Numbered from the stretch's first letter, positions 17,735 through 52,586 are shown. The stretch is 64,000 nucleotides of DNA from Minisyncoccia bacterium (GCA_049297775.1 JBAQUX010000024.1:9162-73161); one strand, 5' to 3'. The notes: generated by a model not told the origin, from the letters alone. Program-made: numbers and translations.

Positions 17735-19261
17735 ATGAAAAAACCTTCTGAACCTAACCCACATGAAAAAATTGGGTATCTTATAAAAGAGTTGAGACAG
17801 CGTAAAAATCTTACTCAGAGCGAGTTTGCTACGCTATTAAAGACTTCGCAAAGCGCTGTTGCTCGTATCGAAAAAGGTGACCAGAACCTTTCGACCGAGC
17901 AAATACTTAAGATTAGTGATGTTCTCAATCATCGCATCATGAGTATTAAGGAAGGCACTGATTTTCAAGTAATCGGAGGGAAAAAGCTTCATGGCTCATT
18001 TGAGGTAAACACATCTAAGAACGGTGCACTTGGGCTCATGTGTGGGGCGCTTGTAAACAAGGGGACGACAACACTGCACGGTATACCACGAATTGAGGAG
18101 ATAGCTCGCATGGTTGAAGTGTTGCGAAGTATTGGCGTAACGATTGAATATGTGGGTGAACATACACTTCGTATTACCCCGCCAAAGAAATTCAACTTTA
18201 GTGGTATGGCAGTGGCATCGGCGCAAAAAATGCGCTCAATCGTGACCACGATTGGCGCTTTGATTCATACAGAAAAACGCTTTGCGATACCGCATGCGGG
18301 TGGATGTAATATGGGCGAAAGAACCATTGAGGCTCACAAGCACGCATTACGCGCACTGGGCGTATCAATTGAAACGAAGCATGATGAGTACGTCATTTCA
18401 CATACAACACTTGAACCGGCTACTATAATAATGTTTGAAGCAAGCGATACAGCGGCAATTAGCGCACTCCTTGCCTCTGCACGTGTTCCCGGGGTTACTA
18501 CTATTAAGTATGCACCTCCAAATTATATGGTCCAAGACGTTTGCTTCTTGCTTGAGAGATTGGGAGTTAGTATTGAAGGAATTGGCTCGACAACTTTAAA
18601 GGTGCATGGCGTTGCGGACATTGACATGAATGTCGAGCATTACAATAGTGAGGATCCTGTTGAGGCGATGATGTGTCTCTCTGCCGCTGCAACAACTAAT
18701 TCAAAGTTAACTATCACACGTGCACCGATTGAGTTTCTTGAAGTTGAATTGCTTAAGCTCGAATACATGGGTCTTAAGTTTTCTGTGTCAAAGCCATACA
18801 TGGCAAAAAATGAAAGAACAACACTTGTAGATATTACAACCCTCCCATCCTCTCTAGTCGCTTCGCCAGTTAAGATTCACCCGCTTCCCTACCCGGGCCT
18901 CAATATTGATAACTTGCCTTTTTTTGTACCCATCGCATCTCAGGCAGAAGGAACTACGCTCATTCATGATTGGACATGGGAAAATAGAGCGATTTACTTC
19001 ACAGAATTGAACCGTTTGGGCGCAGATGTTCGCCTTGCAGACCCGCATCGCGTATTTGTCACCGGACCTCGTGCATTAAAGGGTGCTCAGGTGGTATCTC
19101 CTCCCGCTCTTCGGCCGGCGATGATAGTACTTATTGCCATGCTGGCGGCAGAAGGGACTTCAATCCTCAGAAATGTCTATTCTATTGAAAGAGGATATGA
19201 GCGTATTGCTGAGAGACTTTCAGCAATTGGTGCTAAAGTTGACGTTATAAAGGATTTGTGA
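17735..19261 (+). CDS. murA: UDP-N-acetylglucosamine 1-carboxyvinyltransferase with N-terminal XRE-type helix-turn-helix extension
   Basis: 508 aa; residues 1-65 resemble an XRE-family HTH (LTQSEFATLLKTSQSAVARIEKG); remainder is the EPSP-synthase fold with the catalytic-Cys context HAGGCNMGERT. Confidence 0.8.
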   Translation: MKKPSEPNPHEKIGYLIKELRQRKNLTQSEFATLLKTSQSAVARIEKGDQNLSTEQILKISDVLNHRIMSIKEGTDFQVIGGKKLHGSFEVNTSKNGALGLMCGALVNKGTTTLHGIPRIEEIARMVEVLRSIGVTIEYVGEHTLRITPPKKFNFSGMAVASAQKMRSIVTTIGALIHTEKRFAIPHAGGCNMGERTIEAHKHALRALGVSIETKHDEYVISHTTLEPATIIMFEASDTAAISALLASARVPGVTTIKYAPPNYMVQDVCFLLERLGVSIEGIGSTTLKVHGVADIDMNVEHYNSEDPVEAMMCLSAAATTNSKLTITRAPIEFLEVELLKLEYMGLKFSVSKPYMAKNERTTLVDITTLPSSLVASPVKIHPLPYPGLNIDNLPFFVPIASQAEGTTLIHDWTWENRAIYFTELNRLGADVRLADPHRVFVTGPRALKGAQVVSPPALRPAMIVLIAMLAAEGTSILRNVYSIERGYERIAERLSAIGAKVDVIKDL

Positions 19262-35745: not shown

Positions 35746-37089
35746 TTGTTCTGTTATACTTATTTTTATATGACTGATTGGTATTATGCTTTATTGAAGA
35801 GCTATTTTCTCGGGTTTACGCCTTTCGCGTATGCGTTCATCGCATTTCTACCGTGGCTTTTTCTTACTATGTTTGTTGCCCCTCGGGTGTTCATAGATGC
35901 GCTTCAGATGGTCTTCTATACGATGCCTCTCTGGGTTCTGTACATTACACCACATACGGTGAAGCATTATTGGATGCACTATATTCAGCATCAGTTTATA
36001 GATGATCCTGCTCAAAAGCCGATTCTCCTTGAATTGCTGATACCAAAGGATGAAATGAAATCACCGCGCGCCATGGAAGTAGTGTTTGAATCGTTGCACT
36101 ACAGCTTGCAAATGAATCCTATTTTCCAGACTCAATTTAAGGGCCATGTGCGACCATGGTTTACGCTCGAAATTGCCTCAACGGAAGGGAAGTTGCGCTT
36201 CTATTTGTGGACATGGGAGAAATTGCGCGACCGTGTGGAAGCAGCATTTTACGGACAATACCCAAACCTTCAAATAATTGAAGCTGATCATGACTACTCA
36301 AAGCGCTATGATTTTGACCTGGATAAACCTGAAATGTGGGGATGTAGTTTTAAGCTCGAGAAAGGCGATGCGTACCCGATTAAGACATACTATGAGTTTG
36401 AGCTCGAGAAGGACCCAAAGGCAGAGCACAGAGTTGATCCTTTTATAACGATGCTTGAAATGATGTCAACAATGGGGAAGCATGAACATATGTGGTTTCA
36501 GTTTTTATTTCAGATGGAGCATACTGATGCGTGGAAGGATGATGTTATGAAGGAGATTGATAGAATATACGAAAGTGCAACCCCAGAACATCCGGGAGCA
36601 AAACCCGGAGATAAGGTGAAAGGGTTTCCGCAATTACGACCACTTCAGTACGAACTCATAAAAGGTATGGAGCGATGCGTCACGAAGCATGCATTTAGGG
36701 TTGGCATACGGGGCATGGTCATTACCGATGCAGGTCACTTCAACTTTGGGCACTCTCAGACGACGCAGCGCATGTTTGGGCAGAACAACGCTCATGAGGG
36801 GAGTGAATACTATAACGTCCTCAAGCTTGATCCAGAGCAGCACCTTGCAGGGTTCGACTGGCCATGGGAAGACTATAAGGGTATTCGACGTAGTGCGCGT
36901 GCACGTAAACTTTTGGATTCGTATCAAAAGCGTTCATATTTTCATCCACCGTACATTATGGACCCTATTATTCTTACAACTGAGGAGCTGGCGACACTGT
37001 TTCACATTCCTGGGGGCGAAAGTCAGGTGCTGGGACTCACCAAGACCGAATCAAAGCGGGGAGCGCCACCACCTAATTTACCTTCATAG
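35746..37089 (+). CDS. membrane-anchored protein of unknown family, paralog A of a tandem pair
   Basis: 447 aa; N-terminal TM helices; shares IPKD..KSP.AMEVVF, GHVRPW, KTY.EF.L.KDPKAE.R.DPF, LKPLQYE, FHPPY and the C-terminal EELAT.FHIPGE...ESKRG.PPPNLP with the next gene. Confidence 0.7.
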   Translation: MFCYTYFYMTDWYYALLKSYFLGFTPFAYAFIAFLPWLFLTMFVAPRVFIDALQMVFYTMPLWVLYITPHTVKHYWMHYIQHQFIDDPAQKPILLELLIPKDEMKSPRAMEVVFESLHYSLQMNPIFQTQFKGHVRPWFTLEIASTEGKLRFYLWTWEKLRDRVEAAFYGQYPNLQIIEADHDYSKRYDFDLDKPEMWGCSFKLEKGDAYPIKTYYEFELEKDPKAEHRVDPFITMLEMMSTMGKHEHMWFQFLFQMEHTDAWKDDVMKEIDRIYESATPEHPGAKPGDKVKGFPQLRPLQYELIKGMERCVTKHAFRVGIRGMVITDAGHFNFGHSQTTQRMFGQNNAHEGSEYYNVLKLDPEQHLAGFDWPWEDYKGIRRSARARKLLDSYQKRSYFHPPYIMDPIILTTEELATLFHIPGGESQVLGLTKTESKRGAPPPNLPS

Positions 37090-37091
37090 CT

Positions 37092-38438
37092 ATGTCAGCA
37101 TCTGCCAACAAAGGTTTTGTTTTCAAAAATCCATTTCAGTGGTTAAAGGATTTTTTGTACAAGTTTCAATTACTTGAAATAACCGCAACAGCACTTACCG
37201 GTGTTGCGGGCATGCTCACTGTTCTTTTTGTTAACTGGCAATTACTTCGTGATGGATTCATCATGTTGTTCTACACATCTCCTTTATGGATTTTGTACCT
37301 TTCCCGCAGGGTCGCGTGGCACTATTGGATACACATGCGCAGGCATGAGTTTATAGATGGTGACAGACAAAAGGGTGCCGTGTATGAAATTCGCATTCCT
37401 AAGGATGTACAAAAGTCACCATTTGCTATGGAGGTTGTATTTAATGCACTCTATATAAAGCCAAGTCTTACAACTGCATTCCAAAGAGATTGGCGTGGTC
37501 ATGTGCGTCCTTGGTGGTCATTCGAAATTGTTTCTGATGGAGGAGAACTTAAATTCTATATTTGGTGCTGGAAGCGTTTTCAGTTTCGTATTGAAGCTGC
37601 GATGTATGCACAATACCCAGGTGTGCAGCTTGTTGAAGTCGAAGATTATGCTGCACAAGTAAAATATGTTCCTGGTGTTAATTTGGTAACGGGTACTAAC
37701 TTTGTTTTAAAAAAGCCTGATACGTATCCTTTGAAAACATATTTCGACTTTGATTTACATAAGGATCCTAAGGCTGAATATCGCATTGACCCATTTGCAG
37801 CAATGATTGAATCTATGTGCGTCACTAAGCCAGGAGAAAAGCTGTGGCTACAAATCCTTGTGCAGTATTCAGAGGATGAAAAGTGGAAGTCGCGTGTTAA
37901 AAAAGCAATCGACGAAATTTACACCAGTAGACAAGTCGAGGTTCCATCAATAGCAAATCCTGATGAATCTACTTTTATGCGACTTGGCTTGAAGCCACTG
38001 CAGTATGAAATGGTAAAATCAATGGAAAGAAGTACAACAAAGAATCACTTTGACGTTGGTTTACGTGCCGTGTATTCTGCGCCTCAAGATATATTTAGAC
38101 GTATTCCGTTCGATAGTATTATGCACGCATTTAAATACTACTCTTCAAGTGGTCCGTACTACAACGCGATTGGTCCATTCGGTGAGTCATGGCTCGCGAA
38201 CTTCGATTTTCCTTGGGAAGATTTTAACAATATTCGTGCAAATAGATTGCGTCATCGCCTCCTCGACGCCTACACGAAGCGTTCCATCTTTCATCCTCCG
38301 TACAAACAGATGACTTCAATTATGACCAGTGAAGAGTTGGCAACTATATTTCACATTCCGGGCGAAGACTCAAAAACTTTGAATCTCACTCGACTCGAAT
38401 CGAAGCGTGGAAATCCACCACCAAATTTGCCATTTTAA
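37092..38438 (+). CDS. membrane-anchored protein of unknown family, paralog B of a tandem pair
   Basis: 448 aa; colinear with paralog A at roughly 35-40 percent identity by eye; 2 nt intergenic gap; no Walker A motif. Confidence 0.7.
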   Translation: MSASANKGFVFKNPFQWLKDFLYKFQLLEITATALTGVAGMLTVLFVNWQLLRDGFIMLFYTSPLWILYLSRRVAWHYWIHMRRHEFIDGDRQKGAVYEIRIPKDVQKSPFAMEVVFNALYIKPSLTTAFQRDWRGHVRPWWSFEIVSDGGELKFYIWCWKRFQFRIEAAMYAQYPGVQLVEVEDYAAQVKYVPGVNLVTGTNFVLKKPDTYPLKTYFDFDLHKDPKAEYRIDPFAAMIESMCVTKPGEKLWLQILVQYSEDEKWKSRVKKAIDEIYTSRQVEVPSIANPDESTFMRLGLKPLQYEMVKSMERSTTKNHFDVGLRAVYSAPQDIFRRIPFDSIMHAFKYYSSSGPYYNAIGPFGESWLANFDFPWEDFNNIRANRLRHRLLDAYTKRSIFHPPYKQMTSIMTSEELATIFHIPGEDSKTLNLTRLESKRGNPPPNLPF

Positions 38439-38446
38439 AAAAATTA

Positions 38447-38469
38447 GCGCCAGGTATTGCTCCTGGCGC
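38447..38469 (-). terminator. rho-independent terminator oriented for the minus strand (gcgccagg-loop-cctggcgc then T7 on the minus strand)
   Basis: 8 bp GC stem; on the minus strand it is followed by TAATTTTTTT; on the plus strand there is no T-run. Confidence 0.5.
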
Positions 38470-38475
38470 CGTAGA

Positions 38476-38688
38476 TCAGAGTGGCCTGATGAGCTCCTGT
38501 TCGAGAAGCCACACCAGATCGCTCGTATCAAGAGGAACGGGTCCGTCGGAGGTTCTGCCTCCATCGGCGTCAATCCAAAGTTGTCGTTGCCTTCGAAGGT
38601 CAAAGCTCCGAGGTGAGTTATCCTCACTCGTCACACTAACCCAAAAAGGAACTACTACTTCGAACCGTTGTGCGCCCTGCGTCTGCAT
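38476..38688 (-). CDS. small GC-rich ORF (70 aa) with strong SD, hypothetical
   Basis: GGGAGA 7 nt upstream of ATG; followed on its own strand by the 38447-38469 terminator; GC content well above genome background. Confidence 0.35.
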   Translation of the reverse strand: MQTQGAQRFEVVVPFWVSVTSEDNSPRSFDLRRQRQLWIDADGGRTSDGPVPLDTSDLVWLLEQELIRPL

Positions 38689-38726
38689 AGCGTGTCTCCC
38701 GTTTGTGCGTTGTATGAGCTCGCAAC

Positions 38727-38771
38727 AAAAAGCCCCCTGTCGCTCGACAGGGGGCTGGTGTGTTATTTTTT
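38727..38771. terminator. 12 bp GC-rich hairpin (agccccctgtcg-ct-cgacagggggct) with flanking A- and T-runs, potentially bidirectional
   Basis: Perfect 12 bp stem; on the minus strand TTTT follows the stem directly, on the plus strand TTTTTT is 10 nt downstream. Confidence 0.5.
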
Positions 38772-38885
38772 GATATGCACAACAATCCTCTACCGAGCAG
38801 GGGTTCTAAGTAGAAGTAGTAGTGTTGCGAATGAATGCATAAAAACACTATATACAATCGTCTTATATTTTGCAAGTATGCTCCT

Positions 38886-38913
38886 TTGACATGGCGTTTG
38901 TCTTCGGTATACT
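38886..38913 (+). promoter_or_regulatory. sigma70-like promoter (TTGACA-16 nt-TATACT) for the ilv leader and ridA-ilvA
   Basis: Consensus -35 with a near-consensus -10 at 16 nt spacing, 13 nt upstream of the leader-peptide ATG. Confidence 0.4.
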
Positions 38914-38925
38914 CGTACGATACTT

Positions 38926-38979
38926 ATGCAGTACGAACGCACAATACAAAATATCGCCATTATTATTACGTCAGCCTGA
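38926..38979 (+). CDS. Ile-rich leader peptide MQYERTIQNIAIIITSA (attenuation leader)
   Basis: 17 codons with 5 Ile including three consecutive ATT codons; ends 39 nt before an intrinsic terminator that precedes ridA-ilvA. Confidence 0.5.
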   Translation: MQYERTIQNIAIIITSA

Positions 38980-39017
38980 TGGAGGTTTCTTTTGTGTCTG
39001 TCCTAAAATAGATACGC

Positions 39018-39044
39018 AAGAGCCCTCCTGAGGGCTCTTTTTAT
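39018..39044 (+). terminator. attenuator terminator (gagccct-cctg-agggctc followed by TTTTTAT)
   Basis: 7 bp GC-rich stem plus T-run 19 nt upstream of the ridA start. Confidence 0.6.
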
Positions 39045-39062
39045 ACACTAAAAAGTTTATAT

Positions 39063-39422
39063 ATGAATCAAAGTATTGTGCCTAAAGTAATGGGTCCATA
39101 TTCGCCATGTGTTATTGCTGGGAACTTGGTTTTTTGCTCAGGTCAGTTGGGAGTTACTGATATGTGTGATGAAAATATTACGAAACAGACAAGGACTGCC
39201 TTAATGAGGGTACAACAAGTACTATCAACAGTAGGATTTTCTTTAGAAAACGTTGTGAAGGTTGAGGTGTACCTTAAAAATATGGATGATTTCATGACGA
39301 TGAATGATGTGTACGCTAGTTTTTTTTCAGGTAGTGTACTGCCTGCGCGTGTCACTGTTGAAGTTGCACGACTACCTAAAGGTGCACTTGTTGAAATTGC
39401 GTGCGTTGCCTTTAAAGCATAA
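39063..39422 (+). CDS. ridA: RidA/YjgF family reactive enamine/imine deaminase
   Basis: 119 aa; typical RidA length and conserved C-terminal region ...PARVTVEVARLPKGALVEI. Confidence 0.8.
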   Translation: MNQSIVPKVMGPYSPCVIAGNLVFCSGQLGVTDMCDENITKQTRTALMRVQQVLSTVGFSLENVVKVEVYLKNMDDFMTMNDVYASFFSGSVLPARVTVEVARLPKGALVEIACVAFKA

Positions 39423-39425
39423 TGT

Positions 39426-40682
39426 ATGAAAAAGATTACATTTGTTTCGGCGGCATTAGTTAGAGAGGCACACGAACGTATTCATGCCTTCGTAAAAGAA
39501 ACCCCACTGCAGTATTCAGAGCGATTATCTCAGATGTATGGCGCACGTGTCTACCTGAAACGAGAAGATATGCAGTCTGTGCGTTCGTATAAAATTAGAG
39601 GCGCATACAATCGCATGTCGTTGTTGCTACCGTCAGAAAAAAAGCGTGGCGTGGTCTGTGCAAGTGCCGGTAATCATGCGCAAGGTGTTGCACTCAGTTG
39701 TAGTGTACTCGCAGTGCATGGCGATGTGTTTATGCCGAGGAATACCCCTCGTCAAAAAATTGAGCGAGTACGTGCATTTGGGAAAAAGTATATACAGGTA
39801 CATCTTGTCGGCGATACTTTTGACGATGCTTCACGGGAGGCGCAGCAGTTTTGTATTGAACGGAATGCAGTCTTCATACATCCGTTCAATGACCCACATG
39901 TGTCTGCTGGGCAAGGAACTGTTGCCGTAGAATTGCTCGCTCAATCCAATGAAAAAATTGATGTACTCATCGCACCGGTAGGTGGCGGTGGGCTCATTGC
40001 TGGTGTGTCGGCATATCTTGCAGATGCATCTCCCACGACAAGTATTTTCGGTGTTGAGCCGCAGGGCGCTGCGTCCATGACGGAAGCCATTTTACAGGAT
40101 GCGGTAGTTACACTTGAAAAACTCGATACGTTTGTTGATGGTGCAGCTGTGAGGACTGTGGGAGATACAACATTCCCGGTTGCAAAAAAATATGTATCTC
40201 AGATGGTAACGGTAGCTGAAGGTCATGTGTGTGCTGAGATGATTGATTTGTACCAAAATGAAGGAATAATTGTAGAGCCAGCTGGTGCACTGAGTGTTGC
40301 GGCGCTCTCGCTTCTTGGCTCCCGCATACAGGGGAAGACGGTCGTATGTGTAGTGAGTGGAGGCAATAATGATATAAGTCGATATCCAGAAATTGTCGAA
40401 CGAAGCCTCCGTTTTAAAGGTTTGAAGCATTACTTTATTATTCAATTTGCCCAACGGCCGGGAGCCCTCAAGGAATTTTTGTGCACTGCGCTAGGGCCTC
40501 ATGACGACATTACGCGATTTGAGTATTTGAAAAAGAATAATCGGGAAAATGGACCTGCATTGGTAGGTATTGAATTGCGTCACAAAGATGAATTAGCATC
40601 CCTGGAGTCCCGTATGCAGGCGCTCGGACTCGTCGTTGAAAGGTTGTCACCTCAAAATCCAATTTCTCAGTTCCTACTGTAA
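39426..40682 (+). CDS. ilvA: threonine ammonia-lyase (threonine dehydratase) with C-terminal regulatory domain
   Basis: 418 aa; PLP-binding SYKIRGAYN, glycine-rich VSGGNND loop, about 90 aa ACT-like C-terminal domain as in single-ACT biosynthetic IlvA. Confidence 0.85.
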   Translation: MKKITFVSAALVREAHERIHAFVKETPLQYSERLSQMYGARVYLKREDMQSVRSYKIRGAYNRMSLLLPSEKKRGVVCASAGNHAQGVALSCSVLAVHGDVFMPRNTPRQKIERVRAFGKKYIQVHLVGDTFDDASREAQQFCIERNAVFIHPFNDPHVSAGQGTVAVELLAQSNEKIDVLIAPVGGGGLIAGVSAYLADASPTTSIFGVEPQGAASMTEAILQDAVVTLEKLDTFVDGAAVRTVGDTTFPVAKKYVSQMVTVAEGHVCAEMIDLYQNEGIIVEPAGALSVAALSLLGSRIQGKTVVCVVSGGNNDISRYPEIVERSLRFKGLKHYFIIQFAQRPGALKEFLCTALGPHDDITRFEYLKKNNRENGPALVGIELRHKDELASLESRMQALGLVVERLSPQNPISQFLL

Positions 40683-40719
40683 GATTCCTCTAGGCTGTTC
40701 GTCTTGTATACTATACTGC

Positions 40720-41274
40720 ATGAAAGATTCAGATTTTGAGGCGGTTTTTGAAGAGTACGCCGATAGTCTCTTTCGTCATGCATATTTTAGAGTTGGCTCT
40801 CGAGAAAAAGCTCGTGATATGGCACAGGATACATTCATAAAGGCATGGGATTATGCGAACACACATGACGATGCGGTGCGTGAGTGGAAGCCGTTGTTGT
40901 ACCGAATACTCAACAATTTAATTATTGATGAATATCGAAAAAAGAAGTCAGTGTCACTTGATGCTATCGAGGAGGCACACCAAGAAGAGGGTGCGCATCT
41001 GCCACTCGCATTGCAAGAGGGAGGTCTAGAAGAGGCAGTCGCTCAAGTTGATCTGGGGTATGATGCACAAGTGTTGCAAAAGGCACTCGTGGATGTCTCA
41101 ATGGTTGATAGGCAAGTGCTTACCTATAAATTTATTGACGAGCGCACGAATTCTGAAATTGCAGACCTACTTTCAATTTCCCCAGATGCGGTATATGTGC
41201 GAGTACACAGGGCAATAAAAAATCTTCGTAGCATTCTTGTAACAAAGTATGGGTTTGATAGTATCGTAAAATAA
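40720..41274 (+). CDS. ECF-type RNA polymerase sigma-70 factor
   Basis: Region 2 (FEAVFEEYADSLFRHAYFRVGSREKARDMAQDTFIKAWDY) and region 4 HTH; start taken at the internal ATG to avoid overlap with ilvA. Confidence 0.8.
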   Translation: MKDSDFEAVFEEYADSLFRHAYFRVGSREKARDMAQDTFIKAWDYANTHDDAVREWKPLLYRILNNLIIDEYRKKKSVSLDAIEEAHQEEGAHLPLALQEGGLEEAVAQVDLGYDAQVLQKALVDVSMVDRQVLTYKFIDERTNSEIADLLSISPDAVYVRVHRAIKNLRSILVTKYGFDSIVK

Positions 41275-41276
41275 GT

Positions 41277-42218
41277 ATGAAAAATAAAATCACACAAGTA
41301 AGCAAGGAAATTCATCTGACATCGGGTGAGCGTTCTGTTATGCGTGCTCACATACAGCAGCATATTTCTCATACAAAAAATTCACACTTAGTTAAGTCGC
41401 CGTTTGGGAGTGTCTATTTTATTTTGAATAAGCGAGTGCTTGCCGGTGCGTTGGTGTGTGTACTTACCATAGGTAGCTCTGCACAAGTAACTCGCGCTGC
41501 TCAATATGCGCTTCCTGGAGATTCGCTCTATGGCATGAAGCGAGTTACTGAACAAGTGCACACTGCAACTACATTTTCTGAATCAGGGAAAATTAAGCGT
41601 GCTGGGGAGCACGCTGTTCGTCGCCTCCACGAACGTGCGGTTTTGCAAAAGGAAGGTGGACTTACTGATGCGATAGTTACTGATTTGTCTACATCACTCG
41701 CACTGCAAGTAAAAACGCTTGCCGCTCATGCTGATGCTGAAATTTCGTCACCTGAGTCAGTTACTGAAAGTGCGCGCGCACTGGCGAGCATTGCAGGCTA
41801 TGCGAATGCAATATCTGCATCAGAAGACATTCCTGGGGATGAAGAGGCTTCTGCGGAGCAAATCACTCGTACGGTATCCGAAAAGGAGGAGTCAGTTGAT
41901 GCGATGACAGAGAGCATCCACTCATTTGTAGCATCTGAGGAATATGTTCTTGCTGCAAAATTGGAATACTTACCTAAAGAGTCAGTTGATGCGTTAGTGC
42001 GAGTAGAGTCATCAAAAGCTATTACGAAAGCCGAAACCTCTCAAGATACAATTACTGCAGTAATTGTGGAAGCATACAGTACAGCACGTGGAGAATCCGC
42101 AGATGAACCACTTGATGGGTCGCTCAGAGCCTTGGGGACACTGACACATATTGCCGAGGCGAATGCCCTCCGCGAAGTATCAGAAGATGTAGCGTTGCGC
42201 GAAGCGAGGGAAGATTAA
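41277..42218 (+). CDS. putative anti-sigma factor / single-pass membrane protein with helical extracytoplasmic domain
   Basis: 313 aa directly downstream (2 nt gap) of the ECF sigma gene; one TM near residue 50. Confidence 0.5.
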   Translation: MKNKITQVSKEIHLTSGERSVMRAHIQQHISHTKNSHLVKSPFGSVYFILNKRVLAGALVCVLTIGSSAQVTRAAQYALPGDSLYGMKRVTEQVHTATTFSESGKIKRAGEHAVRRLHERAVLQKEGGLTDAIVTDLSTSLALQVKTLAAHADAEISSPESVTESARALASIAGYANAISASEDIPGDEEASAEQITRTVSEKEESVDAMTESIHSFVASEEYVLAAKLEYLPKESVDALVRVESSKAITKAETSQDTITAVIVEAYSTARGESADEPLDGSLRALGTLTHIAEANALREVSEDVALREARED

Positions 42219-51419: not shown

Positions 51420-52586
51420 ATGTCTCTATCAAAAAAACCAACCGCAATACATACCGCTTCACTCACGATTACTATGGATGATGGTGCTTTAAAGAAATTT
51501 GATGCATACCGAGTACAGTACAGTATGGCATTGGGTCCTACAAAAGGAGGTGTGAGGTATCACCCGGAAGTCACACTTGCAGAAGTAACTGAATTGGCAC
51601 GACTTATGTCATTAAAATGTTCTCTCGCTGGGCTACCGTATGGGGGCGCAAAAGGAGGCATTACCGTTGACCCAGCGCAACTCTCAAAATCAGAACTTGA
51701 GAAATTGACACGTGCCTATGTGCGTGCATTTCAACATGTCTTCGGACCTAAAAAAGATATTCCTGCGCCAGACGTGAACACGAGCGCAGAGACCATGGGA
51801 TGGTTTGTCGACGAGTGGAATACTATTGTTGGTTTTGATGATAGAGCGGTTGTGACAGGAAAGCCACTTATTTTAGGTGGGTCTCTTGGTCGTGATGAAG
51901 CAACCGGGCTCGGTGGAGTGTATGTACTTGAGGCATTACGAAAAACATTAGGAAAAGAAGCTTCAGAAATGCGGATTGCAATACAAGGCTTTGGAAATGT
52001 TGGGAGTTTTTTTGCTCAGCGTGCAGTTGAAAAGGGATATGTCGTCGTTGCAGTGTCCGATGCTTCTGGTGGCGTGTACTCAGCATCGGGAGTACCTGTT
52101 TCTCGCATGAGGGCGCATGATAAAAAAGATAAGTTCTCGGCGTGTGATACATGCACTAAAATAACAAATGATGAACTCCTCGCTCTTGATGTTGATGCAC
52201 TTATACCTGCAGCGCTATCCCATGTTATCAATGAAAAAAATATCTCAACAATTAAAACAAAATATATTGTAGAGATGGCAAACGGCCCGATAGATTTATC
52301 TATCGATGCCGAGCTCCACGCGAGAGGAGTTACTGTTGTTCCTGATGTGCTAGCAAATGCTGGTGGCGTTATCGTCAGTTACTTTGAATGGGTACAAAAC
52401 AATACTGGTGAGTACTGGGACCTAGATACAGTGCGTGTGAAGCTCGCGCGATATATGGAGTCAATGTTTACTCGTGTACATACGCATGCGCAAGAGCGTC
52501 GTACTTCGCTCCGTGAGTCAGCGTATGCTTTTGCAGAAGAGCGAATACATGCAGCAGAGCAGGCGCGCACCAGTGCACATCTTTAA
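51420..52586 (+). CDS. gdhA: Glu/Leu/Phe/Val-family glutamate dehydrogenase
   Basis: 388 aa; catalytic-Lys region GGAKGG and Rossmann GFGNVG. Confidence 0.85.
   Translation: MSLSKKPTAIHTASLTITMDDGALKKFDAYRVQYSMALGPTKGGVRYHPEVTLAEVTELARLMSLKCSLAGLPYGGAKGGITVDPAQLSKSELEKLTRAYVRAFQHVFGPKKDIPAPDVNTSAETMGWFVDEWNTIVGFDDRAVVTGKPLILGGSLGRDEATGLGGVYVLEALRKTLGKEASEMRIAIQGFGNVGSFFAQRAVEKGYVVVAVSDASGGVYSASGVPVSRMRAHDKKDKFSACDTCTKITNDELLALDVDALIPAALSHVINEKNISTIKTKYIVEMANGPIDLSIDAELHARGVTVVPDVLANAGGVIVSYFEWVQNNTGEYWDLDTVRVKLARYMESMFTRVHTHAQERRTSLRESAYAFAEERIHAAEQARTSAHL

Follow-up and report, generated by a model that had tools for sequence, protein, structure and literature searches.

A predicted isoleucine leader-peptide attenuator preceding ridA-ilvA in a Minisyncoccia genome

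Genes at the ridA-ilvA locus

The window considered in the current analysis is a stretch of 64,000 nucleotides from a Minisyncoccia bacterium, and all positions are counted from its first letter. The locus comprises two genes on the plus strand that follow a short leader region. The first of the genes predicted to be regulated is ridA (39063..39422), which encodes a Rid-family enamine/imine deaminase on the basis of profile matches to Ribonuc_L-PSP of Pfam (E-value: 8e-35) and to TIGR00004. One gene caller places the start of ridA at 39090. An exact-sequence look-up with the 119-aa RidA gave no match because the gene caller had chosen the shorter start. The second gene, ilvA (39426..40682), has its ATG 3 nt past the end of ridA and encodes a threonine ammonia-lyase that carries one regulatory domain at its C-terminus. 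Pfam assigns to this protein a PALP domain and one Thr_dehydrat_C domain, and two NCBIfam equivalogs of IlvA match above their cut-offs, NF006390 with 624 bits and TIGR02079 with 593 bits. The NF006390 match bears out the original prediction that the leader is attached to a threonine dehydratase. The enzyme predicted to be regulated is the isoleucine-specific first step of the pathway, and the leader is enriched in Ile codons only.

Directly 3' of ilvA, on the plus strand, lie the genes of an ECF-type sigma factor and of a DUF5667 protein (40720-42218). No terminator-like site between ilvA and these genes has been detected by a simple terminator scan, and these two genes may therefore share the ridA-ilvA transcript.

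The window has a gene content typical of CPR genomes, with genes for type IV pili and a TraG-like ATPase as well as numerous orphan ORFs. Homologs of the IlvA with about 60-62% identity are encoded in MAGs of Candidatus Kaiserbacteria, Parcubacteria and Patescibacteria. CPR bacteria are generally viewed as amino-acid auxotrophs. Since no ilv gene other than ilvA is present within the 64-kb window, and in view of this auxotrophy, the physiological rationale proposed here is putative. A relative with an IlvA of 59% identity (L082) encodes ilvB-ilvN-ilvC-ilvA. The window also encodes, on the plus strand at 51420-52586, a 388-aa protein of the Glu/Leu/Phe/Val dehydrogenase family. Among the NCBIfam models it matches archaeal-type glutamate dehydrogenases best, in each case below the cut-off. 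The protein could be relevant for the amino-acid metabolism of the host.

Promoter and leader ORF

A sigma-70-type promoter has been identified upstream of ridA on the plus strand (38886..38913). It is made up of TTGACA (38886-38891), a spacer of 16 nt and TATACT (38908-38913), exactly as originally proposed, matches the consensus at 11 of 12 positions and is the top promoter-like site across 38000-41500. The transcription start is predicted at about 38920-38921, so that the 5' UTR would span no more than about 5 nt. The distance from the end of the -10 box to the leader ATG is 12 nt in the window as against 6-10 nt in seven relatives described below, and a -35/-10 pair is present at all seven of these homologous loci.

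The promoter is followed on the plus strand by the leader ORF MQYERTIQNIAIIITSA (38926..38979), of 17 codons and a TGA stop, with the ATG at 38926-38928 and the TGA at 38977-38979. An ATG located shortly 3' of a promoter, with a start predicted to be usable, is a feature of the short ORFs of leader-peptide attenuators. The putative regulatory codons are three consecutive ATT codons (Ile12-14, 38959..38967, plus strand), a run that is kept in the relatives. With an ATA at 38944 and an ATC at 38953 the Ile codons amount to 5 of 17, so that the 17-codon frame with its ATT triplet and five isoleucines is present as had been claimed. Enrichment of this kind, conserved in relatives, is characteristic of the attenuator class. 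Three consecutive isoleucines are found in 3 of the 559 short ATG ORFs of the window (about 0.5%).

No Shine-Dalgarno (SD) sequence is found ahead of the leader ORF. The same holds for the genes of the window in general, as the 25 nt ahead of the start contain no SD-like motif in any of the 24 confident genes. A -10-like hexamer ending 5-9 nt (mostly 6) before the ATG is found in 11 of the 24, whereas it precedes 6% of all ATG triplets. Judging from these two observations, initiation in the host appears to be leaderless or SD-independent. Both observations suggest that leaderless mRNAs are pervasive in this CPR genome. A leader ORF that begins at the 5' end of the transcript, or a few nucleotides from it, would be in keeping with such initiation. 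The apparently wide usage of leaderless mRNAs and the lack of SD sequences in the genome make the translation of an SD-less leader ORF plausible.

Terminator and alternative RNA pairings

An intrinsic terminator is located between the leader ORF and ridA on the plus strand (39020..39042), as is typical of attenuators. It consists of GAGCCCT (39020-39026), a CCTG loop, AGGGCTC (39031-39037) and TTTTT (39038-39042). The GC-rich stem of 7-9 bp is followed by U5 and has a folding energy of -13.7 kcal/mol with its A-U extension (ViennaRNA). The hairpin and the T5 tract are as first described; the spacing to the ridA ATG at 39063, given earlier as 19 nt, is 20 nt. This hairpin is not listed by the simple terminator scan, which allows loops of 3-8 nt, and our guess is that a greedy extension of the palindrome left a loop of 2 nt. 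Despite this omission the terminator is backed by ViennaRNA and by seven homologous terminators.

Four segments, referred to as R1 to R4, can be recognised in the leader RNA, all on the plus strand. Minimum-energy folds place R1 (AGCCU, 38973..38977) in a position complementary to the 3' arm of the terminator, GGGCU (R4, 39032-39036), and an equivalent of R1 is found in 8 of 8 leaders. R1 would be covered when a ribosome stalls on the last Ile codons. R2 (38981..38991) is the 5' strand of the antiterminator, GGAGG-U-UUCUU, recognised from folds and the alignment. It is followed by an inner hairpin (38993..39016) seen in the folds, made up of UGUGUCUGU, the loop CCUAAA and AUAGAUACG, which is nested in the antiterminator. 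In this model the inner hairpin draws R2 and R3 towards each other, and it may also serve as a pause hairpin. R3 (39018..39028), the 3' strand of the antiterminator, AAGAG-C-CCUCC, rests on folds and covariation and shares six of its nucleotides with the 7-nt 5' arm of the terminator. The antiterminator alternative that the original prediction asked to be sought by folding is thus found as R2:R3, with R2 immediately past the stop codon.

Folded in full, the leader adopts a single long hairpin of -35.2 kcal/mol, which is better than its shuffled counterparts (z=-2.9). A 1:2 hairpin, the pause or anti-antiterminator structure of the trp paradigm, has not been detected, as the 5' part forms no significant hairpin (z=+0.4). 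Such hairpins are not universal among leader-peptide attenuators. A role of the R2 GGAGG as the SD sequence of a small ORF further downstream was also considered and was rejected, as the candidate ORFs are unconserved and no start codon is found there in two of the relatives (L173 and L174).

Homologous leaders in other CPR contigs

The same element precedes ridA-ilvA in seven further distinct CPR contigs (L167, L168, L169, L170, L172, L173 and L174; L171 is the same as L170 in this region), whose IlvA proteins are 59-62% identical to that of the window. Seven is a lower bound: there are at least seven leader-bearing contigs beyond the window among the CPR IlvA contexts looked up. The intergenic region ahead of ridA-ilvA is about 170-280 nt long in the seven contigs, and all eight leaders share the order of promoter, ATG, in-frame Ile run, GGAGG box, inner hairpin and terminator.

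The leader ORFs of the relatives have 17-27 codons with 3-8 Ile codons in in-frame runs. The encoded peptides are MKQHGGHIIISAIIIPL, MTVHGGHIIIAIIIPSVGRSL, MTYKATMIIAIIIPSNGRTL, MTFTGGHAIAIIAIIAPMRDGGFSCV, MTQTHAIIAIRRFAHSNGGFYCV, MKLSFGIQTNIISIIIIQPSAGGLFCI and MKASSFRQANIISIIISQPADGGFICV. Their runs read IIISAIII, IIIAIII, IIAIII, IAIIAII, IIAI, IISIIII and IISIII, and are of the I-I-[A/S]-I-I-I type. Apart from the Ile run the leader peptides are unconserved among the eight leaders. The comparison of orthologous leaders proposed earlier has therefore turned out in favour of the Ile codons, with the in-frame run kept in seven relatives while the remaining peptide diverges.

GGAGG is invariant in 8 of 8 leaders and begins 10-15 nt after the end of the last Ile codon in seven of them and 21 nt after it in L172. 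The stop codon is located either 4 nt before GGAGG (window and L167) or 11-18 nt past the start of GGAGG (the others). This variable position of the stop indicates that the conserved stretch around GGAGG is conserved as RNA and not as peptide. By geometry, a terminating ribosome would cover R2 at either position of the stop in all eight leaders. The GUGUCU/AGAUAC inner helix is kept in 6 of 8 leaders, and L168 and L169 have a different small hairpin. The terminators of the relatives are of the form GCCC...GGGC with a U tract and lie about 20 to about 80 nt from ridA.

A covariance model built from the seven leaders, with the window left out, matches the window at 38956-39045 (54.7 bits, E=1e-10), and this is its sole significant match in 64 kb. 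The model gave no matches in 165 other IlvA loci. IlvA scans of GTDB genomes and JGI metagenomes revealed relatives of at most 59% identity, mostly from Bacillota and Bacteroidota, without the leader. Their contexts include a ridA-ilvA pair with a 40-nt spacer (L001) and the arrangement ilvB-ilvN-ilvC-ilvA (L081 and L082). The leader is also absent in those Kaiserbacteria contexts (L162-L166) where ridA-ilvA is situated behind trpF or a GIY-YIG gene. In L162-L164 ridA-ilvA directly follows trpF and adjoins trpC and a PALP-family (trpB-like) gene. The ridA-ilvA pair is widespread in CPR and is set in different operons.

Covariation and masked folding

In a MAFFT alignment of the eight leaders 88.6% of the antiterminator cells are paired, as against 40-56% in slid controls. 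Seven antiterminator pairs are changed on both sides and none of 500 shuffles reaches the observed covariation, although these counts are not independent events, as they derive from only eight related sequences. The bases 5' of GGAGG (GAU, AAU, GCU, GUA) track the bases of the terminator loop (AUC, AUU, AGC, UGC), which are free of constraint from the terminator itself. The energy gain is lost when the 5' segment is shuffled: in six of the eight leaders fewer than 5 shuffles out of 1000 attain it, and in each of the eight fewer than 40 out of 1000 do so. Compensatory differences are also seen in the stem of the terminator, which has AUCAGCCC:GGGCUGAU in both L173 and L174 and one additional U-A pair in L172. 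An antiterminator that covaries and is exclusive with the terminator is a further characteristic of the attenuator class.

The effect of a ribosome on the fold was modelled by masking a footprint, assumed to comprise the A-site codon and 10 nt beyond. Masking a ribosome at the stop codon yields the terminator in every one of the eight leaders. Placing the A site on the first Ile of the run yields the antiterminator, again in all eight, and a mask for the last Ile yields it in six, the terminator persisting in L169 and L173. Under this assumed footprint, then, a ribosome at the stop blocks the antiterminator and one stalled at the Ile codons permits it. Without a ribosome mask the long hairpin is the minimum-energy fold in 8 of 8 leaders. 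With the A site on the first Ile, R1 is partly or wholly free in five leaders (window, L168, L172, L173 and L174), and where R1 is free under this mask the R1:R4 helix still forms, adjoining the U tract.

Proposed mechanism

The element is, with high probability, a ribosome-mediated leader-peptide attenuator that senses the supply of isoleucyl-tRNA and controls the read-through into ridA-ilvA. We infer the start of transcription, the translation of the ORF, the stalling and the regulatory outcome from the sequence. Transcription would begin a few nucleotides before the leader ATG, and for this reason the ribosome would load on a leaderless or near-leaderless 5' end. When isoleucine is plentiful the ribosome would reach the UGA stop (38977-38979) and cover R2; with R2 covered, GAGCCCU:AGGGCUC with U5 would form and transcription would end before ridA. 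When Ile-tRNA is scarce the ribosome would stall at AUU AUU AUU, covering R1 and leaving R2 free. The free R2 could then pair with R3 and take up the 5' arm of the terminator, so that the 3' arm would have nothing to pair with and RNA polymerase would continue into ridA-ilvA. The ribosome-mediated attenuation architecture for isoleucine that had been predicted is supported by the covarying antiterminator together with the Ile run in seven relatives, and in all likelihood the element is a genuine transcription switch of a classical, ribosome-sensed kind, as far as can be judged from sequence comparison and folding. Some observations weigh against this reading, namely the terminator that persists in L169 and L173 under the mask for the last Ile, the R1:R4 helix seen in five leaders under the mask for the first Ile, the longer distance from the -10 box to the ATG in the window, the omission of the hairpin by the simple scan, and the Kaiserbacteria relatives in which ridA-ilvA lacks the leader.

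Alternative explanations

The behaviour of the ribosome-free transcript leaves room for a three-state variant of this mechanism, which we regard as a tentative possibility. R2:R3 and R1:R4 would stack, when no ribosome is present, into the long hairpin ending 1 nt from the U tract, and this hairpin would itself be terminating. Read-through might then occur only with a ribosome on the Ile run, where R1 is covered and R2 is free, and R1:R4 could conceivably stand in place of the classical 1:2 hairpin. The long hairpin is indeed the ribosome-free minimum-energy fold in all eight leaders, a significant 1:2 hairpin is absent (z=+0.4), and R1 varies along with the 3' arm, as UCAGCC:GGCUGA in L173 and L174, CCCUC:GAGGG in L167-L169 and AGCCU:GGGCU in the window. 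The R1:R4 pairing alone is, however, no better than that of composition-preserving shuffles (p 0.03-0.58 per sequence), a C-rich R1 pairs readily with a G-rich arm, and the long interrupted hairpin could equally be an antiterminator, with untranslated transcripts reading through. We are doubtful that the leaders form a CPR lineage-specific family of leaderless attenuators with a nested topology, in which R1 replaces the 5' arm of the terminator, transcripts end early whether they are untranslated or translated in full, and read-through requires a ribosome on the Ile run. If it were true, such a family would imply coupled transcription and translation and an Ile-responsive control of threonine dehydratase in CPR symbionts.

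A different output of the same sensing of Ile stalling, namely Rho-dependent polarity, mRNA stability or the translational accessibility of ridA, is improbable. The structure could affect the initiation of ridA, which has no SD sequence and starts 20 nt past the hairpin, but a canonical GC-rich hairpin with at least 5 U is kept in 8 of 8 leaders and the terminator-ridA spacing of about 20-80 nt argues against a fixed translational coupling. We consider it very improbable that the element is a ligand-, tRNA- or protein-binding riboswitch-like structure (T-box-like, for example) in which GGAGG is a binding or anti-SD site and the ORF is irrelevant. Its attraction is that GGAGG is invariant in a set of eight leaders although the genome shows no usage of SD sequences, a conservation greater than base pairing alone needs. 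Against this, no T-box or riboswitch match is found by Rfam even at E<=10, the element is short and lacks a conserved unpaired pocket, and the in-frame Ile codons and the promoter-adjacent ATG would be left unexplained. The probability that the hairpin simply ends an upstream transcript or serves as a 5' terminator of a constitutive or leaky kind, and that the small ORF is a chance frame, is remote, and we strongly disfavour it. The rate of about 0.5% for III among short ORFs in an AT-rich window, the absence of an SD sequence and the lack of the remaining Ile pathway in the window would be compatible with chance, but the -10-adjacent ATG, the in-frame Ile run and the fixed spacing to GGAGG recur in eight lineages, in which the position of the stop and the remaining codons change while the Ile run stays, the antiterminator covaries, and the upstream plus-strand transcript has its own terminator at 38731-38756.

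Comparison with known systems

At gathering thresholds, Rfam assigns no non-tRNA family to the window. The best sub-threshold match on the plus strand is Phe_leader, with 21 bits against a threshold of 55 (E=0.67), and no T-box match is seen in the window at E<=10. From this lack of Rfam matches the element is placed outside the enterobacterial leader families and the T-box.

In its logic the proposed attenuator resembles the enterobacterial ilvL and ivbL and the trp, his, leu, thr and phe leaders, with a promoter-proximal ORF, tandem codons of the end product, exclusive antiterminator and terminator hairpins and the position of the ribosome as read-out. The ilvA gene of E. coli is part of the ilvL-controlled ilvGMEDA operon, and ivbL is the leader of ilvBN. 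Unlike ilvL and ivbL, with which it shares no sequence or structure homology, the present leader is enriched in Ile only and not multivalent for Ile/Val/Leu, has no SD sequence, has a leaderless or near-leaderless start, lacks a 1:2 hairpin and contains an R1 complementary to the 3' arm of the terminator. The operon also differs from the enterobacterial systems in comprising ridA-ilvA only, and the host is a CPR bacterium (Minisyncoccia). The earlier designation as a classical ilv attenuator consequently holds for the logic and fails for the homology to ilvL/ivbL, the SD sequence, the 1:2 hairpin and the multivalency.

Amino-acid-specific choice between antiterminator and terminator in the 5' leader is also known from the ilv-leu T-box leaders of Firmicutes. 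T-box leaders sense uncharged tRNA directly and do not need translation. The element of the window differs from them in being too short and in lacking T-box features. In mycobacteria, leaderless short ORFs with poly-Cys runs act as attenuators in which ribosome stalling controls downstream biosynthetic genes; they differ from the Ile leader in amino acid, phylum and RNA.

The ilvBNC operon of Corynebacterium glutamicum, which carries branched-chain amino-acid genes, is preceded by a translation-dependent attenuator with antiterminator and terminator hairpins, and its leader peptide IlvL, MTIIRLVVVTARRLP, has 15 aa and a start codon one nucleotide from the transcription start (PMC11857589). By analogy, this attenuator is the nearest described counterpart in design, as both systems combine a short leader peptide with a leaderless-type start. 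The corynebacterial system differs in phylum, in the genes controlled (ilvBNC), in its mainly Val response with mixed Ile/Val/Leu codons, and in a three-hairpin model with an anti-antiterminator in a leader of 292 nt as against about 120 nt here. No homology between the C. glutamicum ilvBNC leader and the element of the window has been detected.

Implications for gene regulation in CPR bacteria

To our knowledge, little is known of gene regulation in CPR/Patescibacteria and almost no cis-regulatory RNAs have been described from them. Full-text literature searches revealed no paper joining leader-peptide attenuation with CPR/Patescibacteria, and an Ile leader-peptide attenuator is apparently undescribed in this phylum. 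What is proposed is a new family inside a known kind of regulator, the mechanism itself being textbook. The element would add a well-supported cis-regulatory RNA to the CPR phylum and would imply that CPR bacteria use transcription-translation coupling and leaderless initiation for regulation. It also indicates that the expression of IlvA in these reduced genomes may answer to the charging of Ile-tRNA. From this tie it can be argued that the synthesis of 2-oxobutyrate and isoleucine is real, and regulated, in at least some CPR lineages.

Divergent strand and other observations in the window

A promoter-like site, TTGCAA-17-TATAGT, is located on the minus strand (38875..38847), divergent from the Ile leader. 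An ATG (38840, minus strand) 6 nt past this site opens the frame MHSFATLLLLLRTPAR, which ends in a stop and contains five consecutive Leu codons. The frame is followed on its 3' side by an 11-bp GC-rich hairpin with UUUUUG (38756..38731). Rfam gives weak matches to Leu_leader and Thr_leader at this ORF (E 0.1-0.2), far below gathering, and no antiterminator has been found for it by masked folding. The ORF may be a second leaderless leader, of the Leu type, or it may be due to chance. If true, such a divergent leader (38840-38731, minus strand) situated before a putative structured RNA would extend the same principle.

The region that follows on the minus strand (38446-38730) is GC-rich, with 52-59% as compared with about 40% around it. 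It folds far better than its shuffled counterparts (z=-7.6) and ends in a hairpin with a U run (38470..38446). No Rfam or Pfam match is found for this region, including a 70-aa ORF encoded in it. The only homolog of the ORF comes from a sibling genome and is 87% identical, as against about 98.6% for IlvA between the same genomes. This region probably represents a structured RNA not described so far, or an orphan gene.

Two tandem paralogs of about 447 aa each are encoded on the plus strand at 35746-37089 and 37092-38438, and both end in ...PPPNLP(S/F). They are assigned to DUF8128 by precomputed annotation, with no match in the Pfam scan. An unusual domain fusion is encoded on the plus strand at 17735-19261, a 508-aa protein in which an N-terminal HTH_3 domain is joined to a domain of the EPSP_synthase family (MurA/AroA-type).
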